From: an uncultured Pyrinomonadaceae bacterium
Lineage (GTDB): Bacteria > Acidobacteriota > Blastocatellia > Pyrinomonadales > Pyrinomonadaceae
DNA length: 54,070 nucleotides
Assembly (NCBI GenBank): GCA_965365505.1
Contig: CBDUBY010000001.1
Coordinates: 1 to 54,070, forward strand
Direction of reading: 5' to 3'
Shown: one piece after another, positions 2,960 to 49,868 of the stretch
How positions within the stretch are numbered: the first letter of the stretch is position 1
How the letters are laid out: each line of letters opens with the position of its first letter
The notes under the pieces: model-generated
Database searches by the model: none
What the model was told of the DNA's origin: nothing
Seen by the model: the letters and a program-made list of their open reading frames with translations, nothing else
Made by a program: the position numbers and the translations under genes

Positions 2960-5900
2960 ATGATTTCTGTCGGCAATCAAATCGGACGATACAAAGTTCT
3001 AAAAACCATCGGAGCGGGTGGAATGGGCGAAGTTTTTCTAGCTGAAGATACAGATTTAGGACGGCTTGTCGCTTTGAAAGTTTTGCTGTCGGAAGTATCT
3101 CACAGCAAGGAACGTATCAGACGATTCATTCAGGAAGCAAAGGCAGTTTCCGCATTAAATCACCCGAACATATTGACCATTCACGAAACCGGCTTTTTAG
3201 ACGGCACCCGTTTTATAGTTTCGGAATTCGTCAAAGGCGTAACCCTGAGAGATAAATTAAAAGACGGACCGCTGAACTTATTTGAAACTTTGGAAATAGC
3301 TGTTCAAATTTCGTCGGCGCTTTATGCCGCGCATTCGAGCCAAATTATTCATCGTGATATTAAACCGGACAATATAATGATCCGCGAAGATAATCTGGTG
3401 AAAGTGTTGGATTTCGGACTGGCAAAACTTTCTGTTGCGGAACCTGAATCAATCAACAGCGAATCTCCGACACGCGACCAAATTAATACTATACCGGGTG
3501 TGATTATCGGAACAGTCGGTTATATGTCGCCGGAACAAGCCAGAGGCAAAACAGTTGACCACCGAACGGACATTTTCAGTTTCGGTATTGTTCTTTATGA
3601 AATTCTCACTGGAATTCAACCGTTTTACGGCGAAACACGAAGCGATGTCATTGCGGCGATTTTAACGAAAGAGCCGCAAAATCCCTGTTTGCTAAATGCT
3701 GAAATTCCCTTTGAACTCGAACGTATTATTAGTAGAATGCTTTGCAAAGATCCTGCGGAGCGTTATCAAAATGTCGGACATTTGCTGGAAGATTTCAAAG
3801 AAATTAAACGGAATTTAGAATTCAACTCAACAAACGAATTCAAAGCTCAGGCAAAAGCACGGTTAGAAGCTAAAACCGAAATATTGAAAGCCGATACGGG
3901 CAACACCGTCAACGTTACAACCCAATCAATCGCCGGATTTTCTTCTAATAAAATTCCGCTTCCTAAATTAACAAATAAAGTAAAGTCTATTTCTAAATCG
4001 AAATTTTCTCTGCTTTTGGCGCTCGGTTTATTTACCGTTGCCGCGATATCGGCGTATCTCCTGTTACCTAAGCTGGCTGCCAATCAACCCAAACCCGAAG
4101 CAGTGAATTTATACAATCTCGGTACCGAAGCGCTGCGCGACGGGACATCTTATAAAGCCAGTAAAATGCTCGAAGATGCCGTCAGTCTGGACAATAATTT
4201 TACAATCGCACACGCTAAACTGGCTGAGGCTTGGGCGGAATTGGATTATCTCGGACGCGCCCGAAATGAAATGCTGAAAGTTCGAGAATTACAGCAGAGG
4301 CAATCTTTTCTGTCTTCTTTTTCTAAAACGGAAGACTCGCTTTATATTGACGCGATTAGTGCCACCGTGCTTAACAATTTTACCCAAGCCGCCGGAATTT
4401 ATGAAACTATCGCGCAAAAGCGTCCGAACGATGCATTCGTTTACTTGGATTTGGGTCGAGCTTACGAGAAAAACGAGCAGATAGACAAAGCGATTGAGTA
4501 TTACGAAAAAGCTATCGGGTTAAATGCTCAATACGGTGCCGCTTACCTGCGTCTGGGAATTTTAAGAAGCCGCAAAGCCGAATACGAAAAGGCTGCGTCG
4601 GCTTTTGATCAAGCCGAAAATATCTATGACCGTTTGAGTAACGACGAAGGAATCGCCGAAGTAAAGATTCAGCGCGGCACCTCGCTCAACCATCAAGACC
4701 GGCTTAAACCGGCACTCGAACAGTTTGAACAAGTTATCCGCCATCCGAGAACGAGTAAATACCAACAAATTAAGGCAATGCTGCAAATCAGCAGCGTTTT
4801 GTGCAGCAAGGGGAAAACCGAACAGGCGCAGGTCTATGCCTCGGACGCGATCAAACTGGCGCGAGATGAAAGAATGGACAATCTCGCCACCAGCGGTTTG
4901 ATTGATCTCGGCTACGCTTTCTTCGTTGGGACAGATTACGAGCAAGCCGAGCAGCATTTTCGCCAGGCAATCGAATTCGCCCGCAAAGACGACGGACGCA
5001 GAAACGAAGCCCGCGCCTTGCTCTCGTTAAGCAGTTTATTTGTGAATAGCGGCAAACCGGACGAGGCGTTGCAGTATGTTAACCAAGCATTCCCGTTTTA
5101 CCTGCAAGGCGGTTATCAGCAGGAAATTTCGCAGGCTTATCTGTTGCTCGGTTTCGCCAGCCAAATGAAATCCGATTATTCGACGGCTGTTGAATCGTTT
5201 GAAAAAGCCTTGCAGTCGGGCGAGATAATGCAGCGCGCTCAGGCTTTAACCGGACTCGGAACCGTCTTAAGCAGTCAGGAACAATATCCGAAGGCTTTAG
5301 CGTATTTTGAACAAACCGATAAATTATATGAAGCGATGCAGAGCAATTATAATCTCGGCTTTAGCCAGTATAATACCGCTGATATACTGTCAAAATTAGG
5401 TCGGCTTGAAGAAGCGAAACAAATCATCGCCAAAGTTGAAAAGATTTTTGCCGACGATAAAACCGATCATTCGGAATTGCAGGCGAAGTATTCCTTGTTG
5501 AAGGCTCGATTGGCTCTGAGTGAAAATAATTTCCCGGAAGCGATTAAAATCACCGAACAAATAACTTTACTAAAAGACCCGGAAATTGCCGCTGAAACAT
5601 ACAGATTGATGGGATTGGCGAAAGTTCTCTCTCGGTCGAAAAGCGGCGACGGCATTCAAATCTGCGTCAAATCAGTTGAAACGGCTCGACAGACGGATAA
5701 TCTACAAACCGTCAAACAGGCAAAGTTAGCCCTCGCCGAAGCGTATTTGAGCAGCGATAAAAACAAATTAGTTACAGAGGAAATTCTGGAAATCAAGAAT
5801 TACTTCATTTCCGCAGGACAAAAAGAAACAGGCTGGCGCGCGTTGCTCGTCCTGGCAAAGGCTTACCAACAAAAAGGCGATTTGCTGTCGGCAAAAGAAT

Positions 5901-6072: not shown

Positions 6073-6771
6073 ATGGATTTAGAAAAACAAGAGCAAAATC
6101 AAGAGCGCGGTATTGTTTCAGACCTAATCATCGGCGGGATGGCTGCCGGAATCATTATTTCTCTGTTAGTGAAATACAAAAAAAAGATAAAGATTCTTCC
6201 AAATCCCACAATACCGCCAATAATTATTAAGCCTAAAAGCAAACAACTGGAAATTGTATATGGTCTGGAGATGAAGGAGACTAAAAATACGCAGACCAAG
6301 GTTTATGAAATATCCGACTTTGATTGGGTTCAAAATATCGGAGTACACTATTTCAATCCAGATAGCAAAAATCATTTTCACGATCCATACCCATCCCGAC
6401 GGGGTGTTAAAGTAGAAATTTACTTGCAGAGGAAACCCACGAATAGTGGGGGATGGGACTGGGTAGAGGATGATGATCACTCTCAAATTACTATTCTAGG
6501 AAATCAAGAAAATTTTCAACTAATTGTGAAAACGCCCGGTCATTACTTATCAGAAGAGGATAACAATTACGATGGCGACCAAAGATTTAAACGCAGTTAT
6601 GTAGGAGAGGTTGGCTTTGATTATCGAATGGGCAAAATGGCAATTCTTGTATACAACGATGTCGTAAAACCTACTAGACCATATATATCTAAACCTTTGA
6701 ATCAGGATAGTTTTAACGATCAATACTCATTAGCTTTGCACCACAAGTCATCTGTAAAATCCAGGTATTGA
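6073..6771 (+). CDS. hypothetical membrane-anchored protein (AT-rich orphan)
   Basis: GGAGG RBS at 6061-6065. N-terminal TM helix (LIIGGMAAGIIISLLV) and a Pro/Ile-rich linker. I recognise no family. Two hand-counted lines give about 32% G+C. Confidence 0.6.
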   Translation: MDLEKQEQNQERGIVSDLIIGGMAAGIIISLLVKYKKKIKILPNPTIPPIIIKPKSKQLEIVYGLEMKETKNTQTKVYEISDFDWVQNIGVHYFNPDSKNHFHDPYPSRRGVKVEIYLQRKPTNSGGWDWVEDDDHSQITILGNQENFQLIVKTPGHYLSEEDNNYDGDQRFKRSYVGEVGFDYRMGKMAILVYNDVVKPTRPYISKPLNQDSFNDQYSLALHHKSSVKSRY

Positions 6772-7248: not shown

Positions 7249-8106
7249 ATGACGGGTTTGCCTGAATTCATCGCTTATACGTTTATTTTTATTATCGGCG
7301 CGGCGGTCGGAAGTTTTTTGAACGTCGTAATTCACCGCGTGCCAAACGAAGAATCAATTGTTTATCCGAATTCCGCTTGCCCGCAGTGCGGCAAATCAAT
7401 CAAGCCTTACGATAATATCCCGATTTTGAGTTGGCTGATTTTGCGCGGGCAATGTCGCAACTGCCGCAAACCGATTGCGTGGCGTTATCCGGCGGTTGAA
7501 CTTTTGACCGCGCTGCTGTTCGTTCTGGTTTATGGGCAAATCGGATTCACGGCGTTTCTGCCGGTCGCTTTGATTTTCGCGGCGACGATGGTTGCGCTGA
7601 TTTTTATTGACGCGGAAAATATGATTCTGCCGAATGTGATAACTTATCCGCTGCTTGTTTTCGCGCTGCTAGTGCGGGTGATTTACCCGCTTTTTTTCAG
7701 CGTGACGTTTTCCGATTCTAAAATCTTTCCGCTGACTTATCTGCTGGAATATCCCGTTTGGCTAGTTTCGCTCGTTGGCGCGGTTCTCGGCGGATTGATT
7801 GGCGGCGGCTCGTTATGGCTGGTCGGCGAGATTTGGAAGCGTCTGCGCGGCGTTGACGCGATGGGTTTGGGCGATGTCAAAATGATGTTTGCCGTCGGCG
7901 CGCTTTTGGGCTGGCAATTGACGCTGTTATCAATTTTTCTCGGCGCGTTCTCCGGCGCGGTAATCGGTGTCTTCCTGATTTCTCGTCAAAAAGAAAAGGA
8001 TATGCAGACGCAGATTCCGTTCGGAATTTTTCTCGGCATCGGTTCGGTTATCAGTCTGCTGTTCGGCGAGCAGATCGTTAAATGGTATCTTTCGATGTTC
8101 GTTTGA
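7249..8106 (+). CDS. pilD: type IV prepilin leader peptidase / N-methyltransferase (A24 family)
   Basis: GSFLNVVIHRVP, the zinc-binding CPQCG...CRNCRKPI pair, IPILSWL, multi-TM body, GLGDVKMM and IPFGIFLG motifs. Start moved to MTGLPEF (ATG 7249). Confidence 0.9.
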   Translation: MTGLPEFIAYTFIFIIGAAVGSFLNVVIHRVPNEESIVYPNSACPQCGKSIKPYDNIPILSWLILRGQCRNCRKPIAWRYPAVELLTALLFVLVYGQIGFTAFLPVALIFAATMVALIFIDAENMILPNVITYPLLVFALLVRVIYPLFFSVTFSDSKIFPLTYLLEYPVWLVSLVGAVLGGLIGGGSLWLVGEIWKRLRGVDAMGLGDVKMMFAVGALLGWQLTLLSIFLGAFSGAVIGVFLISRQKEKDMQTQIPFGIFLGIGSVISLLFGEQIVKWYLSMFV

Positions 8107-9514: not shown

Positions 9515-9569
9515 AAAAAATTTTATTTCTCCTTTGATTAAATTACTGCCAAAAAAAGTGCCGTGCAGA

Positions 9570-9966
9570 GTGGAGCAAGTCTATAAGCCGAATTTTGTAT
9601 TCGCCCCGAAAGGCAAACGGTAATCATTCATCTAGGCTCGTCGTTACCGAAAAGCTCAAGCGACCTACCCGGAAACGCTGTTTGAATCGCTTCAAACATA
9701 AGAGCGGGCAGCTCTTAAAATGTCGTTTCCCTATTTGGTCTTGCACCGCGAGGAGTTTACCCAGCCGCGCCTGTTACCAAACGCGCTGACGCGCTCTTAC
9801 CGCGTCGTTTCACCCATCACCTTTCGGCTGGTCTGTTCTCTGTTGCACTTGTCGTCATCCGATTAAAAATCAAATGCCCGGACGTTATCCGGCTCGCCGC
9901 CCTGTTGGTGTTCGGACTTTCCTCTGCCGATTTTTCAATCGAAAGCGATTACCCAACTTGCTCCGC
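9570..9966 (-). ncRNA. rnpB: RNase P RNA, bacterial type A
   Basis: The reverse complement reads GGAGCAAGTTGGGTAATCGC...CGGCAGAGGAAAGTCCGAACACC...ACAGAGAACAG...GGGTGAAACG...GGTAAACTCCTCGCGGTGCAAGACCAAATAGG...CTAGATGAATGATTACCG...ACAAAATTCGGCTTATAGACTTGCTCC. It contains the universal GAGGAAAGTCCG core. P1 forms between GGAGCAAGT (5') and ACTTGCTCC (3'). Ends are accurate to about 5 nt. Confidence 0.93.
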
Positions 9967-33119: not shown

Positions 33120-33566
33120 TTACTCGCCGATGTCTTCGTTCCAAATCTTCGGGTTTTCCCTGATATAATCGCCGAGCATCTTTTTACATTCCGGCGAATC
33201 GAGATTGACAACTTTCACTCCATTTTCTCTCAGCCATTCGATTCCGCCGTCAAAATTTTCGGTCTCGCCGACGATGACTGTGCCGATTTTGAATTGCCTG
33301 ATTAACCCCGAACAATACCAGCACGGCGCGAGCGTCGTCGCCATAATCGTCTGTCGGTAATCGCGCTGCCGCCCGCTTTTGCGAAACGCATCGGTTTCGC
33401 CGTGAATCGAAGGATCGTTTTCCTGCACACGACGGTTGCGACCGCGACCGAGCAAATTTCCCGAAGCGTCAAAAAGAGCCGCGCCGATTGGAATGCCGCC
33501 TTCGGCTAAACCGATTCGTGCTTCTTCAATCGCCACGTCTAACATCTGGTGAAAGTTTTCGTTCAT
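33120..33566 (-). CDS. CDA-fold cytosine deaminase, yeast Fcy1-type
   Basis: HGETDA (H-x-E zinc/catalytic motif), TLAPCWYCSG (PCxxC), and the C-terminus ENPKIWNEDIGE closely matching yeast Fcy1 ...WFEDIGE as I recall it. The ATG overlaps the upstream stop (ATGA at 33563-33566). Confidence 0.8.
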   Translation of the reverse strand: MNENFHQMLDVAIEEARIGLAEGGIPIGAALFDASGNLLGRGRNRRVQENDPSIHGETDAFRKSGRQRDYRQTIMATTLAPCWYCSGLIRQFKIGTVIVGETENFDGGIEWLRENGVKVVNLDSPECKKMLGDYIRENPKIWNEDIGE

Positions 33567-34315
33567 AAATTTTTCAATCTAATGCGAATCAGCAAATCGT
33601 TCAAATCATTTTTAGCGTTCGCCGCATCCGGCAAATCGCTTCGCTGCATTTCCTTTTCCAATTCAGCGACCAGCCGTTCGTATTCTTTCTGGTAAAAATT
33701 CAAATCTGCGCCGGGCAAAATGTCGCGTTCCGCGCCGGATGTTTTGCGCTCAATCAATTCGGGCACGTAAGGCAGATTAAATTTCTCGTTCAGCTTCGGC
33801 AGATTCGCTTCGATTTCGCCCGTTTGCATCAGATTGATGCCGGTCAGAAGCACGCGAAGGATATACAGCAGCGGCTTGACGCGCGGCTGCGGTTCTTTCG
33901 AGAAAAGTTTCCATTCGGTTTTGGCGAACCCGAAATAATGATGCGCGTGATAGCGCGTGATACACCGCTTGCCGATGCTTTTTAACTCGTCGTGTTCCGG
34001 CGTAGTCAGCACAATCAGCGGCGAAAACAGTTGTTCGAGAACATAACCGTTTTTCTTGAGCATCAGCGCGAAAAACTTCCTCGCGTCGTGCGTCACCAAA
34101 TCGAGTTCCAATCCGTCACGAATCTCCTCAACCTGAACCGTCTCGCGCCCGACATCCAACCCGACGACATCAGCCAGCGGCAAAACGTGAACGCCGCGCA
34201 AATCATAATCCGAATCCGCCGACGGAAATCCGTAAAGATGCGCCCCGCTGACAGTCGCAAAAACTAGCGGAAAAGGATGTTCGAAAGCTATTTGTTTGAG
34301 CTTTTCTTCGATCAT
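33563..34315 (-). CDS. Pol-beta-superfamily nucleotidyltransferase, YcgL/PF10127-like (paralogue 1)
   Basis: FPLVFATVSGAHLYGFPSADSDYDLRGVHVLP matches the GSHLYGFxSxxSDxDxRG signature I recall for B. subtilis YcgL-type proteins. Start set at ATG 34315, 1 nt after the upstream TAA. The track start at 34351 would overlap by 35 nt. Confidence 0.7.
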   Translation of the reverse strand: MIEEKLKQIAFEHPFPLVFATVSGAHLYGFPSADSDYDLRGVHVLPLADVVGLDVGRETVQVEEIRDGLELDLVTHDARKFFALMLKKNGYVLEQLFSPLIVLTTPEHDELKSIGKRCITRYHAHHYFGFAKTEWKLFSKEPQPRVKPLLYILRVLLTGINLMQTGEIEANLPKLNEKFNLPYVPELIERKTSGAERDILPGADLNFYQKEYERLVAELEKEMQRSDLPDAANAKNDLNDLLIRIRLKNL

Positions 34316-34316
34316 T

Positions 34317-34778
34317 TTAATCTCTAAGTCTTGAGTTCCAACCGCGTTCAAGCGAAGCTTTAAATTCTTCTGGCGTTTCCAGCGAAAGCCAGTAAAGATA
34401 TGTTTTTCCTCTTTGCTTTGCTTCTTTATCCAATGGTTCTGCTAACAGTGACTCAACTTCTTTGCGAACTTGTTCAATACCTACAACTTCCGCAAAATAC
34501 CAAGGAAGTTCTTCTATACTCACATCCCAATTTTTCAGTGAAAGTCTAATATCTTCGCGCAAATTTCTATTGTATTTAGGTTTCAATTTCCACAATAGCC
34601 CACCTGCCGCTGCTTGATAGGGATATAAATTATCAAGAAAGAAAATTTCAAGAAGCCCTTCAAGAACAATATCAGAGTCCTCTTTTTTCAATCTGAGCAT
34701 TAGATGGCGAACACCTTGCCAAGCATTCTGTCCGCCCACAACTTTTATTAATTCAAGTCTTATTTGTTCTGGTTTCAT
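34317..34778 (-). CDS. hypothetical helical protein (AT-rich insert between the two NTase genes)
   Basis: 153 aa, predicted helical, no recognisable family. Hand-counted lines give about 32-38% G+C, against about 55% for a neighbouring NTase line. Confidence 0.6.
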   Translation of the reverse strand: MKPEQIRLELIKVVGGQNAWQGVRHLMLRLKKEDSDIVLEGLLEIFFLDNLYPYQAAAGGLLWKLKPKYNRNLREDIRLSLKNWDVSIEELPWYFAEVVGIEQVRKEVESLLAEPLDKEAKQRGKTYLYWLSLETPEEFKASLERGWNSRLRD

Positions 34779-34781
34779 TTT

Positions 34782-35717
34782 CTAAACAACTGACCGTCTG
34801 GCTCGAATCAAAAACTCATTCGCCCTTTTGTAATCGGAATTTTCCGGTAAATTCGTTCGGGCGAAGGCTTCGTCAAATTCCCTGTGCAGATTGACGCGCC
34901 ACTCGTTGACTTCGCGCCATTCGAGTTCGGCGTTTTTTATCGCCAGCAGTTTCGGGCGATGTTCGGCGGTGACGCGCACGATTAAATCAGCTTCGCGCAG
35001 AATTTCGATGCCCTGCACGAGCAGTCGTATCAAGTGCATCGCGTGTTTCCATTTAACCGTGCCGGCGGTGCGCAAATCCTGTTCGAGCTTTTTGAACTGC
35101 GACATCACATAGCCGTTGTAAGTTTGATAAACGAGCTTCGACAAAAAGATTTGCCTGATCGAAAGCAGCTCGGCGGCAAGCTCGCTTTGGTATTCGACGA
35201 GCGGCGTGAAAAGACATTCCAAAATATTCGGATTCGCTTTGAGCGCGAGCGTCAGAAACTTTTTCAATTCCCAGTAACATTCTTCCGTGTCTTTGTTCTC
35301 AAGCTGTTCCGGCACGCCGAACAAAGACCAATGCACATCGGCGGGCGGCAGATAAATCCCGCGTAAATCGGTGTCGGAATTCTCATCGTCCAGCCCGAAC
35401 GCCTTTGAACCGACGACGCAGCGGTAAATCACGAAATCATACAAATCGAAGTCTTCGAGCGGCGAAATCAAACCGCTCTGCTCGGTCTGAAATTCCTTGC
35501 GAATCGAAAAACTTTTACGGTTCGCCATCGCGCATCTGCCGTCGGGAAACTCGATTTTGTAGGCATGAAAAGCATCGGCTGGTGTTTCAACGACTTTGCC
35601 GACCGTTCCCTTCGCGTAAAAAGAATTTTCGTTAAAGACTTTTGTTTCGTTGAGCAGAACAATCTGCGTCCCTTTCGGAATTATCAGATTAAAATCCGTG
35701 TCTTTCGCATTTTTCAT
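34782..35717 (-). CDS. Pol-beta-superfamily nucleotidyltransferase, PF10127-like, with extra N-terminal beta-rich domain (paralogue 2)
   Basis: VIYRCVVGSKAFGLDDENSDTDLRGIYLPPADV gives the same G[SG]...D-x-D-x-RG signature. About 95 additional N-terminal residues (IIPKGTQIVLL...GTVGKVVETP...YKIEFPDGR). Confidence 0.7.
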   Translation of the reverse strand: MKNAKDTDFNLIIPKGTQIVLLNETKVFNENSFYAKGTVGKVVETPADAFHAYKIEFPDGRCAMANRKSFSIRKEFQTEQSGLISPLEDFDLYDFVIYRCVVGSKAFGLDDENSDTDLRGIYLPPADVHWSLFGVPEQLENKDTEECYWELKKFLTLALKANPNILECLFTPLVEYQSELAAELLSIRQIFLSKLVYQTYNGYVMSQFKKLEQDLRTAGTVKWKHAMHLIRLLVQGIEILREADLIVRVTAEHRPKLLAIKNAELEWREVNEWRVNLHREFDEAFARTNLPENSDYKRANEFLIRARRSVV

Positions 35718-35822
35718 TCATAAGATTTTAATAATTAAACCTCGCTTTATACTAATGTAACGAGGCGCGGAAACACCTTTACGCAATAATTTGGAATGTG
35801 AACGATTTGTTAAATTTTCTGC

Positions 35823-35852
35823 TTGACACTAAAAATTTCCTTTTGCTATATT
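35823..35852 (+). promoter_or_regulatory. sigma-70-type promoter for the repeat RNA
   Basis: TTGACA (35823-35828), 18-nt spacer, TATATT (35847-35852). The predicted start near 35859 coincides with the 5' end of the outer stem. Confidence 0.6.
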
Positions 35853-35873
35853 AATTTTAGTTCGTGGTTGTTT

Positions 35874-35904
35874 GTTAGTTAGTTACTTAGTTAGTTAGTT
35901 AGTT
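35874..35904 (+). repeat. tetranucleotide tract 1: (GTTA)3 CTTA (GTTA)3 GTT
   Basis: Read directly from the sequence. Confidence 0.95.
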
Positions 35905-35928
35905 TGTAACTATTTCGGTAGTTACTTT

Positions 35929-35955
35929 GTTAGTTAGTTAGTTAGTTAGTTAGTT
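35929..35955 (+). repeat. tetranucleotide tract 2: (GTTA)6 GTT
   Basis: Read directly from the sequence. Confidence 0.95.
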
Positions 35956-35976
35956 CATTTGCAACCACAACTAAAA

Positions 35977-36020
35977 AGCCCGTTTAGCCGTCAAAAGCTA
36001 AACGGGCTTTTTCTTTTTTT
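35977..36020 (+). terminator. strong intrinsic terminator
   Basis: AGCCCGTTTAGC-cgtcaaaa-GCTAAACGGGCT followed by TTTTCTTTTTTT. Confidence 0.9.
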
Positions 36021-36078
36021 CCGGTAATTTACGAATTAAAACAACGGTTGTGTTAATTTATTGTAAGGAGAAACCTTT

Positions 36079-36438
36079 ATGTCACAAGATTTTCAGCCCG
36101 GCGATTTTTTAATTTTTCAGATTGAAAGCGGTTACGGCTTGCTGCGTATTCTGGCAATTGACCAAACCGAAACGGGAACAATCTGGCATCTGGCAGCTTA
36201 TAATGAAATGTTTCTCGATATTGAGATGGCTGACGCGGCACTTGAAAATTATCACACATTAACGAAAAGCTATCAGCATCTGGCACTGACGACGCGGGCT
36301 TTTGAAAGCACACAGGTTGCGCGAATGAAAAACGAGCCGTTGTCTGATGACGAACTCGAAAACGTCGCGCATTGGCGTGTCAATGAACAGAGCGAAGTTT
36401 CCGATTTGTCGGTCAGGTTGCTGCTCGGATTGCGATGA
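36079..36438 (+). CDS. hypothetical small acidic protein
   Basis: AAGGAG RBS at 36065-36070, 8 nt before the ATG. 119 aa, with about 19 D/E against about 8 K/R by hand count. Beta-rich N-terminus (GDFLIFQIESGYGLLRILAID). No family recognised. Confidence 0.6.
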   Translation: MSQDFQPGDFLIFQIESGYGLLRILAIDQTETGTIWHLAAYNEMFLDIEMADAALENYHTLTKSYQHLALTTRAFESTQVARMKNEPLSDDELENVAHWRVNEQSEVSDLSVRLLLGLR

Positions 36439-49480: not shown

Positions 49481-49560
49481 GGATGAGGGATGAGGGATGA
49501 GGGATGAATAAGAAAAATCCTTTTGCTTTATTCATCCCTCATCCTTCATCCTTCATCCTT
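49481..49560. repeat. long hairpin made of tandem GGATGAG/GGATGAA heptamers and their complement
   Basis: The left arm is (GGATGAG)3 GGATGAA TAA (49481-49511) and the right arm TTA TTCATCC CTCATCC TTCATCC TTCATCC (49528-49558). The right arm encodes the last residues (MKDEG) of the YbjQ-like gene. Confidence 0.9.
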
Positions 49561-49868
49561 ATCCTCACTGCCGTGCCATACGCCAGAACTTCGGTAATCG
49601 TGGATGAAAATTCCGTCGCATCGTAGCGCATCGCAATAATCGCGTTTGCGCCGAGTTCGTGCGCGTGCTGAACCATTAAGCCAAAAGCATCCTGCCGGGC
49701 TGCTTCGCAGATGCGCGTGAACTCTTTGATGTTACCGCCGCCGAGTGCCTTTAATCCGCCGATGAATCCCGCGCCGATGCTCGTCGCACGAACCACGATG
49801 CCGCGCACCACACCTAGATATTCGACGATTTCGCCCATCGCCACATCGTTTCCCGTTGTAATTATCAT
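49539..49868 (-). CDS. YbjQ/UPF0145 family protein
   Basis: MIITTGNDV...IVEYLGVVRGIVVRA...GGNIKEFTRICEAARQDAFGLMVQHAHELGANAIIAMRYD is typical of YbjQ_1. Confidence 0.85.
   Translation of the reverse strand: MIITTGNDVAMGEIVEYLGVVRGIVVRATSIGAGFIGGLKALGGGNIKEFTRICEAARQDAFGLMVQHAHELGANAIIAMRYDATEFSSTITEVLAYGTAVRIRMKDEG

Follow-up and report, generated by a model that had tools for sequence, protein, structure and literature searches.

A predicted small RNA of Pyrinomonadaceae whose direct-repeat arms pair into a wobble rod

The stretch of DNA analysed here (54,070 nucleotides, called the window below) contains at positions 35823-36020 what is probably a stand-alone small RNA gene, with a putative product of ca 160 nt. 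Its two (GTTA)n arms are predicted to pair with each other in the RNA, and we put the probability that this is a genuine structured small RNA gene with paired arms at about 0.9. Transcription is suggested by the promoter and the terminator alone, as read from the sequence. The gene belongs to a previously undescribed family, referred to as the rod RNA, whose members have up to now come from Pyrinomonadaceae (Acidobacteriota) and from soil metagenomes. The rod RNA is a structured bacterial small RNA, and its wobble helix built from repeats is unprecedented.

To our knowledge, the regulatory RNAs of Acidobacteria, which are among the most abundant soil bacteria, are almost unknown. The rod RNA family provides a testable candidate, being small, with strong expression signals and a simple, unusual design. 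Its long helix derives from one direct repeat and has hardly any pairs other than tandem G·U and A-U, so that it can form in RNA alone, and there from just one of the strands. The family illustrates how a structured RNA gene can arise from a microsatellite, and how the register of a repeat helix can be locked by clamp helices together with mirrored mismatches. Should a partner come to light, the periodic wobble helix would represent a new recognition mode in bacterial ribonucleoprotein biology, and also a length-tunable RNA rod for engineering.

All elements of the gene lie on the plus strand. The promoter scan identifies a -35 hexamer TTGACA (35823-35828), followed after an 18-nt spacer by an extended -10 box TGcTATATT (35844-35852, with TG at 35844-35845 and TATATT at 35847-35852). 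This promoter has an 11/12 match and the top score of a 2-kb scan, and the predicted transcription start is A35859 or G35860. The whole GTTA tract (35870-35955) is detected by TRF as 21.8 copies of a period of 4 with the consensus GTTA, the top TRF score anywhere in the window. With at most one mismatch, GTTAGTTAGTTA occurs 12 times in the window, every time at the rod RNA locus, where 0.05 occurrences are expected. Taken together with the promoter and the terminator, the tract and these counts indicate that the region is far from chance. No open reading frame of at least 20 aa runs across the repeat, the sole exception nearby being a 22-aa TTG frame over the terminator. The rod RNA is present in the window as a single copy, with a score of 108 bits using the covariance model R1.

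These results confirm a good part of the first-pass annotation of this DNA, which had described a self-contained RNA gene running from promoter to terminator, with a near-consensus promoter having an 18-nt spacer, an outer stem, two (GTTA)n arms, a terminator with a U-run, and a tract that does not code for protein. Promoter, RNA and terminator are conserved together in 35 members of the family.

For the 163-nt transcript, RNAfold gives an energy of -50.9 kcal/mol, compared to -26.9 ± 3.4 kcal/mol for shuffled sequences (z = -7.0). In the predicted fold, both arms are zipped into one continuous rod composed of the helices P1, P2 and P3, after which the terminator P4 follows. P1 is the outer clamp helix, in which the 5' strand UAGUU-C-GUGGUUGU (35858-35871) is paired with the 3' strand GCAACCACAACUA (35961-35973), leaving one bulged C; RNAfold, covariation and RNAalifold all support it. 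P2 is formed by the 5' arm (GUUA)3 CUUA (GUUA)3 GUU (35874-35904) and the 3' arm (GUUA)6 GUU (35929-35955), both evident from the sequence and from RNAfold, the former also from TRF. In the window it has a single C·U mismatch, where C35886 is opposite U35946. The apical helix P3, GUAACUAU/GUAGUUAC (35906-35925, pairing 35906-35913 with 35918-35925; RNAfold and covariation), is capped by a UUCG tetraloop (35914-35917) that is closed by a U·G pair. This hairpin had been assigned 7 bp and a 6-nt loop in the annotation, while it actually has 8 bp and the tetraloop. Finally, P4 is an intrinsic terminator (35974-36020; RNAfold and terminator scan), whose stem pairs 35974-35988 with 35997-36011 around an 8-nt loop, CGUCAAAA, at 35989-35996. 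Directly 3' of the stem comes UUUUUCUUUUUUU, and the U-run extends to 36020.

Pairing of the arms in the RNAfold structure follows from the match of 5'-GUUA-3' with 5'-UAGU-3' (as G·U, U·G, U-A and A-U), such that (GUUA)n is self-complementary in RNA. This pairing is impossible in DNA and in the antisense RNA. The earlier statement ruling out pairing between the two arms is thus true of the DNA and of an antisense transcript only, and it is wrong for the RNA. Since the P2 helix contains only G·U and A-U pairs, it would be easily melted.

The design can on this basis be pictured as follows. An extended -10 promoter of the housekeeping type would start transcription at the first base of the structure, and the RNA would fold into one rod of ca 50 bp, comprising P1, P2 and P3, followed by P4 and the U-tail. 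P1 would serve as a clamp helix containing G-C pairs, P2 as the long central helix in which the (GUUA)n arms are paired as repeating G·U / U·G / U-A / A-U quartets, P3 as the apical helix under the UUCG tetraloop, and P4 as a terminator hairpin with a conserved A-rich loop. A repeat helix of this kind is slippery, and when unlocked it could slip in 4-nt steps or pair between molecules. P1, P3 with its UUCG loop, and the mirrored mismatches would lock its register.

The family was assembled from two kinds of scans. A scan of a genome collection for two GTTA runs 8-38 nt apart returned at least 120 loci, mostly plain (GTTA)n microsatellites of Bacteroidota. Among the matches listed, the full architecture is found in four Pyrinomonadaceae MAGs (L024, L035, L054 and L076), the last of which is a variant whose apex differs and which is not counted in the family statistics. 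A metagenome scan anchored on UUCG gave 95 loci, ca 30 of which are true members. In total, 35 distinct members were analysed, namely the window, three Pyrinomonadaceae MAGs and ca 30 soil-metagenome contigs. It is important to point out that the metagenome pattern required perfect GTTA runs and TTCGG, so that the UUCG loop and the arm sequence owe part of their conservation to ascertainment; independent support for these two features comes only from the window and three of the four genome matches. The conservation of P1, of the arm matching, of the promoter and of the terminator is independent of this search pattern. The covariance model R1 also gives 35-64 bits to plain (GTTA)n microsatellites, and the limits of the family were set by inspection of the architecture and not by the R1 score.

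Two scans of viral contigs yielded no member of the family, only an unrelated GTTA-rich phage element. Scanning the window against Rfam 15 gave a match to RNase P and none at the rod locus. With permissive settings, the best match within 35700-36100 is the trpB motif, with 29.3 bits against a threshold of 59, a score that is driven by the terminator. Eight other members were also scanned with Rfam, without any match at the rod RNA, and our search of the literature found no description of such an RNA. The assessment that no described RNA family has this architecture is therefore upheld by Rfam, at gathering as well as permissive thresholds, and by the literature.

That the arms are paired is supported by comparison of the members. 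The two sides of the rod, counted from P1 to the loop, vary between 30 and 51 nt across the family, with a mean difference between the sides of 0.86 nt and a Pearson correlation of r = 0.95 (n = 35). With sequence anchors that are independent of the fold, the correlation is r = 0.91. In L192, a close relative of the window, the sides measure 50/51 nt as compared to 42/43 nt in the window, that is, two units have been gained per arm. The earlier suggestion of a freely slipping contingency tract is not supported by this behavior, since the repeat number changes only in both arms together.

The sequence of the arms leads to the same picture. When the two sides are anchored at P1 and compared without gaps, 85% of the arm positions fall into standard pairs at register 0, and only 12-51% do so at shifts of 1-3 nt; register 0 is the best one in 30 of the 35 members. 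Departures from the GUUA periodicity (CUUA, ACCUAG, AGAUAG, UGAU and others) face each other in 64% of cases, compared to 36% in permutations, although the members are phylogenetically related and the permutation and shuffle statistics given here accordingly overstate the significance. The opposed breaks result in symmetric internal loops, from 1x1 to 5x5, and in one clade the internal loop has a U·U plus a tandem G·A pair. Furthermore, in all 35 members the sense strand has a more stable fold than its antisense counterpart (mean energies of -32.2 and -18.1 kcal/mol, respectively), a difference that vanishes once G·U pairs are forbidden. The proposal that the arms are displayed as single strands is not supported, as they are matched in length, are in pairing register and have mirrored interruptions.

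For the clamp helices, classical covariation could be used. In the alignment A1, 15 of the 20 pairs of P1 and P3 have changed on both sides, with 90% of the cells paired, a level that none of 500 shuffles reaches; slid controls give 27-58%. For P1 separately, 9 of 12 pairs have changed on both sides, and for P3 the number is 6 of 8, with 94.6% of its cells paired. RNAalifold independently recovers P3 and the core of P1, and nothing else, as the repeat arms are not alignable in the MAFFT alignment on which it was run. It is for this reason that the pairing of the arms was examined sequence by sequence, and the support for P2 consists of the length, register and mirror statistics together with the thermodynamics. 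Classical compensatory substitutions are absent in P2. Outside the interruptions, C is almost absent from the arms, and where it does occur it mostly creates a mismatch rather than a G-C pair. We infer from this scarcity that selection keeps the G·U pairs instead of strengthening the helix, which suggests that the wobble pattern is recognized, that the helix has to melt easily, or both.

The expression signals are conserved along with the structure. TGnTAnnnT is present in 31 of the 35 members, and TTG is found 16-19 nt upstream of the -10 box in 29 of the 35. In 29 of the 31 members having TGnTAnnnT, the -10 box lies 11-14 nt from the P1 core, and with such a fixed spacing transcription would start at the base of P1. 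Thirty of the 35 members have a terminator hairpin with a U-tract, the remaining ones being cut by contig ends. The 8-nt terminator loop has the sequence C[CG]U[CU]AAAA in 25 of these 30, while the stem sequence varies. A conserved loop is unusual for a terminator, and the pattern suggests a second functional site, where the RNA may make another contact. As a side observation, the UCAAAA(C/G) of this loop (window 35989-35996) is complementary to a T-rich GTTTTGA that directly precedes the -10 box in many members, for example in the promoters of L128, L135, L155 and L192, which is probably a coincidence.

Turning to the genomic context, the rod RNA of the window is located next to a divergent operon (33120-35717, minus strand) that encodes an RlaP nucleotidyltransferase, a 153-aa protein, a second RlaP and a cytidine/dCMP deaminase. 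The other neighbors are a 119-aa protein (an unannotated ORF) and proline dehydrogenase. The RlaP homologues place the source organism in Pyrinomonadaceae. Through RlaP, the loci of seven relatives whose RlaP is 75-88% identical were fetched, six of them with a gene order like that of the window, plus the short L007. None of the seven (L001-L007) has the rod RNA, and in L001 and L005 there are only 50-60 bp between the 119-aa gene and RlaP, where it would sit. Some rearrangements were also seen within the operon of the relatives: the deaminase is found at the upstream end instead, and in place of the middle gene there are unrelated ORFs of 186 aa, of 241 aa, or of 56 aa together with a 341-aa TPR protein, or, as in L001, none.

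Comparison of the junctions with L128, L001 and L005, together with blastn, shows that the whole RNA cassette is contained in an insertion of ca 285 bp (35758-36040) compared with the 50-60 bp found there in relatives, flanked in the window by a degenerate duplication of AAACCGTTGTTTATGCTAAT of ca 20 bp. The cassette at 35810-36011 is 89% identical to positions 2283-2486 of L128, where it is found on the other side of RlaP1, and in L135 it adjoins the deaminase. In the clade of the window the cassette thus always lies within an RlaP locus of ca 5 kb, but at three different positions (the window, L138, L155 and L192; L128; L135). Outside this clade, tblastn finds no homologue of RlaP, of the deaminase or of the 119-aa protein in the flanks (at most 4 kb) of ca 30 members. 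An all-against-all BLAST of the flanking ORFs reveals no universal neighbor gene that would point to a partner protein, with sharing only within the clade of the window. The neighbors elsewhere, identified by eye from the translations, are presumably argininosuccinate lyase, methylmalonyl-CoA mutase, a methyltransferase, PPK2 and a NUDIX protein.

Two further observations concern the neighborhoods of individual members. In L054, an SRP RNA and two tRNA-Ser genes lie beside the rod RNA and form an RNA-gene cluster (5687-5785, 6260-6349 and 7568-7657); this bona fide SRP RNA is separate from the rod RNA, at a distance of 600 nt. In two clades, an unannotated protein of ca 130 aa is encoded ca 140 nt from the rod RNA (L054 5223-5615; L194 2689-3087, and also L167). 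The copies of the two clades are 42% identical and match no Pfam family, and, relative to the rod RNA, one clade has the gene in divergent and the other in co-directional orientation. This protein was not found in the flanks of other members.

These contexts bear directly on three alternative explanations. The annotation had proposed the RNA as a substrate or primer for the neighboring nucleotidyltransferases, and a partnership with the divergent RlaP enzymes and the deaminase, in which the RNA would be substrate, primer or activator, would be in line with the constant presence of the cassette at the RlaP locus in the clade of the window and with the activity of RlaP enzymes, which add 1-2 nucleotides to damaged RNA 3' ends (PMC12776372). 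However, L001/L002, L005, L006, L003 and L004 share the operon and the synteny and lack the RNA, with 50-60 bp of intergenic DNA, and no such genes are found in the flanks (up to 4 kb) of the ca 30 members of other clades. Judged from this comparative context, the partnership appears largely refuted, and we consider it highly improbable. A cis-acting 5' leader or attenuator of the downstream 119-aa gene could be envisaged from the window, where the terminator ends 60 nt upstream of the co-directional ORF at 36079-36438. The 119-aa gene occurs in L001, L005 and L128 without such a leader, though, no predicted structure competes with the terminator, and the gene downstream has a convergent orientation in 17 of 29 members, which means that the rod RNA is not a leader. 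The orientation statistics already contradict this alternative, and its likelihood is practically negligible.

The third explanation is that the cell gains no function from the locus, which would then be a microsatellite, plain or of the contingency type, or else a hairpin cassette that is selfish or mobile. (GTTA)n microsatellites are indeed common in bacteria, the position of the cassette differs in close relatives, it looks like an insertion of 285 bp with a degenerate flanking duplication, and one member (L181) adjoins what we take, by eye from the translation, to be a transposase-like ORF. With respect to a MITE, the observations point both ways: the cassette is at different positions in close relatives and has the ca 20-bp degenerate flanking duplication in the window, but there is one copy in 54 kb, and P1 is internal to the promoter and the terminator and not at the ends of the cassette. 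Against the third explanation as a whole, promoter, P1, P3, terminator and terminator loop are conserved across diverged members with compensatory changes, the repeat numbers of the arms change only jointly, the architecture was not found in viral contigs, and the tract lies outside any ORF or promoter spacer. An element without cellular function is consequently very unlikely.

With regard to function, our preferred reading is tentative. The rod RNA would act in trans and might dock, titrate or scaffold a factor that recognizes the periodic wobble helix or the internal loops within it. A sponge or scaffold had also been put forward in the annotation, for single-stranded arms; such a role is conceivable for the paired rod rather than for single strands. 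A more far-reaching and equally tentative reading is a new class of bacterial riboregulator derived from a microsatellite, in which a tetranucleotide repeat that is self-complementary only in RNA yields a periodic tandem-wobble helix with a length tuned by concerted slippage of both arms. This helix would be either a polyvalent array for a factor that reads G·U pairs (a protein or a metal ion) or a reversible switch from rod to single strands gated by temperature or a helicase.

Two other modes of action have to be weighed against the docking reading. In the first, the arms would stay unpaired and present ca 13 UAGU/GUUA units, in the manner of a sponge, to an oligomeric protein that binds single-stranded RNA, similar to TRAP, HutP or Hfq. 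The UAG motif is indeed repeated ca 13 times, P2 has only meltable G·U and A-U pairs such that a protein could capture the open form, and the rod loses ca 14 kcal/mol when G·U pairs are forbidden. On the other hand, nothing in this scenario needs the length match, the common register or the mirrored interruptions, the UAG triplets have 1-nt spacers rather than the 2-3 nt of TRAP sites, and the scores with the Rfam Trp_leader and trpB models are far under the thresholds (18-29 bits against gathering thresholds of 41-59), which makes the single-stranded form quite unlikely. Alternatively, the RNA could act by base pairing with target mRNAs, possibly with Hfq bound at the terminator and U-tail, with the rod as a stabilizing or decoy body and the terminator loop CSUYAAAA or a transiently opened arm as the seed. 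A hairpin followed by a long U-tract is the typical 3' module of Hfq-type small RNAs; in the window the terminator is followed by a U-tail of 6 nt or more, and the conservation of the loop in 25 of 30 members while the stem varies would fit a seed. However, the 54-kb window contains no site complementary to the arms, that is, no (UAAC)n-like target elsewhere, a loop seed of 6-7 nt is too short for an enrichment test in one window, and the conserved, length-matched wobble rod of 35-50 bp would be left unexplained. We therefore regard this option as rather unlikely.

Among known systems, the rod RNA may in its working most resemble, by analogy, the eukaryotic repeat hairpins that trap proteins, such as r(CUG)n sequestering MBNL1. 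Both have a self-complementary short repeat that forms a long hairpin with periodic non-Watson-Crick pairs, and r(CUG)n-type hairpins act as polyvalent protein traps. The latter are pathological expansions inside mRNAs, without clamps and without a fixed length, whereas the rod RNA is a dedicated bacterial gene with register-locking helices, matched arms and its own promoter and terminator. The CsrB/RsmY/RsmZ sponges are likewise stand-alone small RNAs with a repeated short motif and an intrinsic terminator, and they titrate a protein by means of GGA motifs in the loops of many small hairpins. In contrast to these, the rod RNA is a single rod plus terminator, and GGA is absent from 35858-36020. 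The leaders recognized by TRAP and HutP share with it the tandem UAG triplets upstream of a terminator. In the TRAP-regulated trp leader there are 9-11 (G/U)AG triplets with 2-3 nt spacers, and antiterminator and terminator compete; in the rod RNA a UAG recurs every 4 nt, leaving a spacer of 1 nt and not of 2-3 or 4 nt, the repeats are paired and not wrapped around a ring, and the gene is not upstream of trp or hut genes.

A number of other RNA classes were considered and rejected. With 6S RNA and 4.5S/SRP RNA the rod RNA has in common a promoter of the abundant type and a single long imperfect hairpin of 100-180 nt. There is no central bubble as in 6S RNA, the internal loops being small and symmetric, and no Rfam match; for SRP RNA, the domain IV loops, a GNRA loop and a match to RF00169 at the locus are all absent. 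The antitoxin RNAs of type III toxin-antitoxin systems (ToxI, CptI) are also non-coding tandem-repeat RNAs with their own promoter and terminator. The units of ToxI are ca 36 nt long (34-40), are processed by the adjacent toxin and are not self-paired; the unit of the rod RNA is 4 nt, and a conserved adjacent ORF is absent. A retron msr-msd RNA is not indicated either, as no reverse transcriptase is present among the neighbors in the window and the contexts of the other members vary. A phase-variable contingency repeat was rejected since the tract lies inside its own non-coding transcript and the arms change their copy number jointly. Finally, the likeness of the variant unit GUUCGAAUU in L054 to a tRNA T-loop was put down to chance, the closing stem being absent.

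Some additional observations were made on other GTTA arrays. Bacteroidota (Flavobacterium, Chryseobacterium, Sphingobacterium and Pedobacter) commonly carry long, pure (GTTA)n arrays, with between 8 and more than 60 units, and such arrays occur also in some gamma-proteobacteria (Colwellia, Psychrobacter and Salmonella diarizonae). Examples among the genome-scan matches L011-L127 are L012 (6777-6900), L046, L072 and L094. Several of these arrays have a terminator-like hairpin directly after them, and a continuous (GUUA)n would, if transcribed, likewise be self-complementary through G·U pairs. In five loci of Flavobacterium/Chryseobacterium (L020, L039, L073, L094 and L118), the array is followed by a T-rich stretch and then, ca 50 nt downstream of the array, by the motif TTTTGGCCGG[CT]GA[AT]GG. 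Short contigs of the MAG 'bacterium isolate Bpl_12' (L040, L079, L091 and L098) have higher-order repeats of ca 100 nt made of GTTA-like units.

The phage element encountered in the viral contigs is recurrent, consisting of direct and inverted repeats of the TTAACTAA/GTTAGTTA type that have the hairpin tgcgtgtaaacgca on one side and a conserved gggcgcatacgcccgac hairpin on the other. It is carried by L229, L232, L239, L241-L243, L251, L254, L263, L265, L266, L270, L276, L287, L292, L295 and L296; it bears no relation to the rod RNA of Pyrinomonadaceae, and its role may be that of an origin or a regulatory region. In the window itself, the RNase P match corresponds to a bacterial RNase P RNA of class A (9568-9964, minus strand, 275.7 bits in Rfam), and two heptamer arrays, (GGATGAG)3.9 at 49481-49507 and (TTCATCC)5.1 at 49531-49565, lie 24 nt apart and are approximately reverse-complementary to each other.
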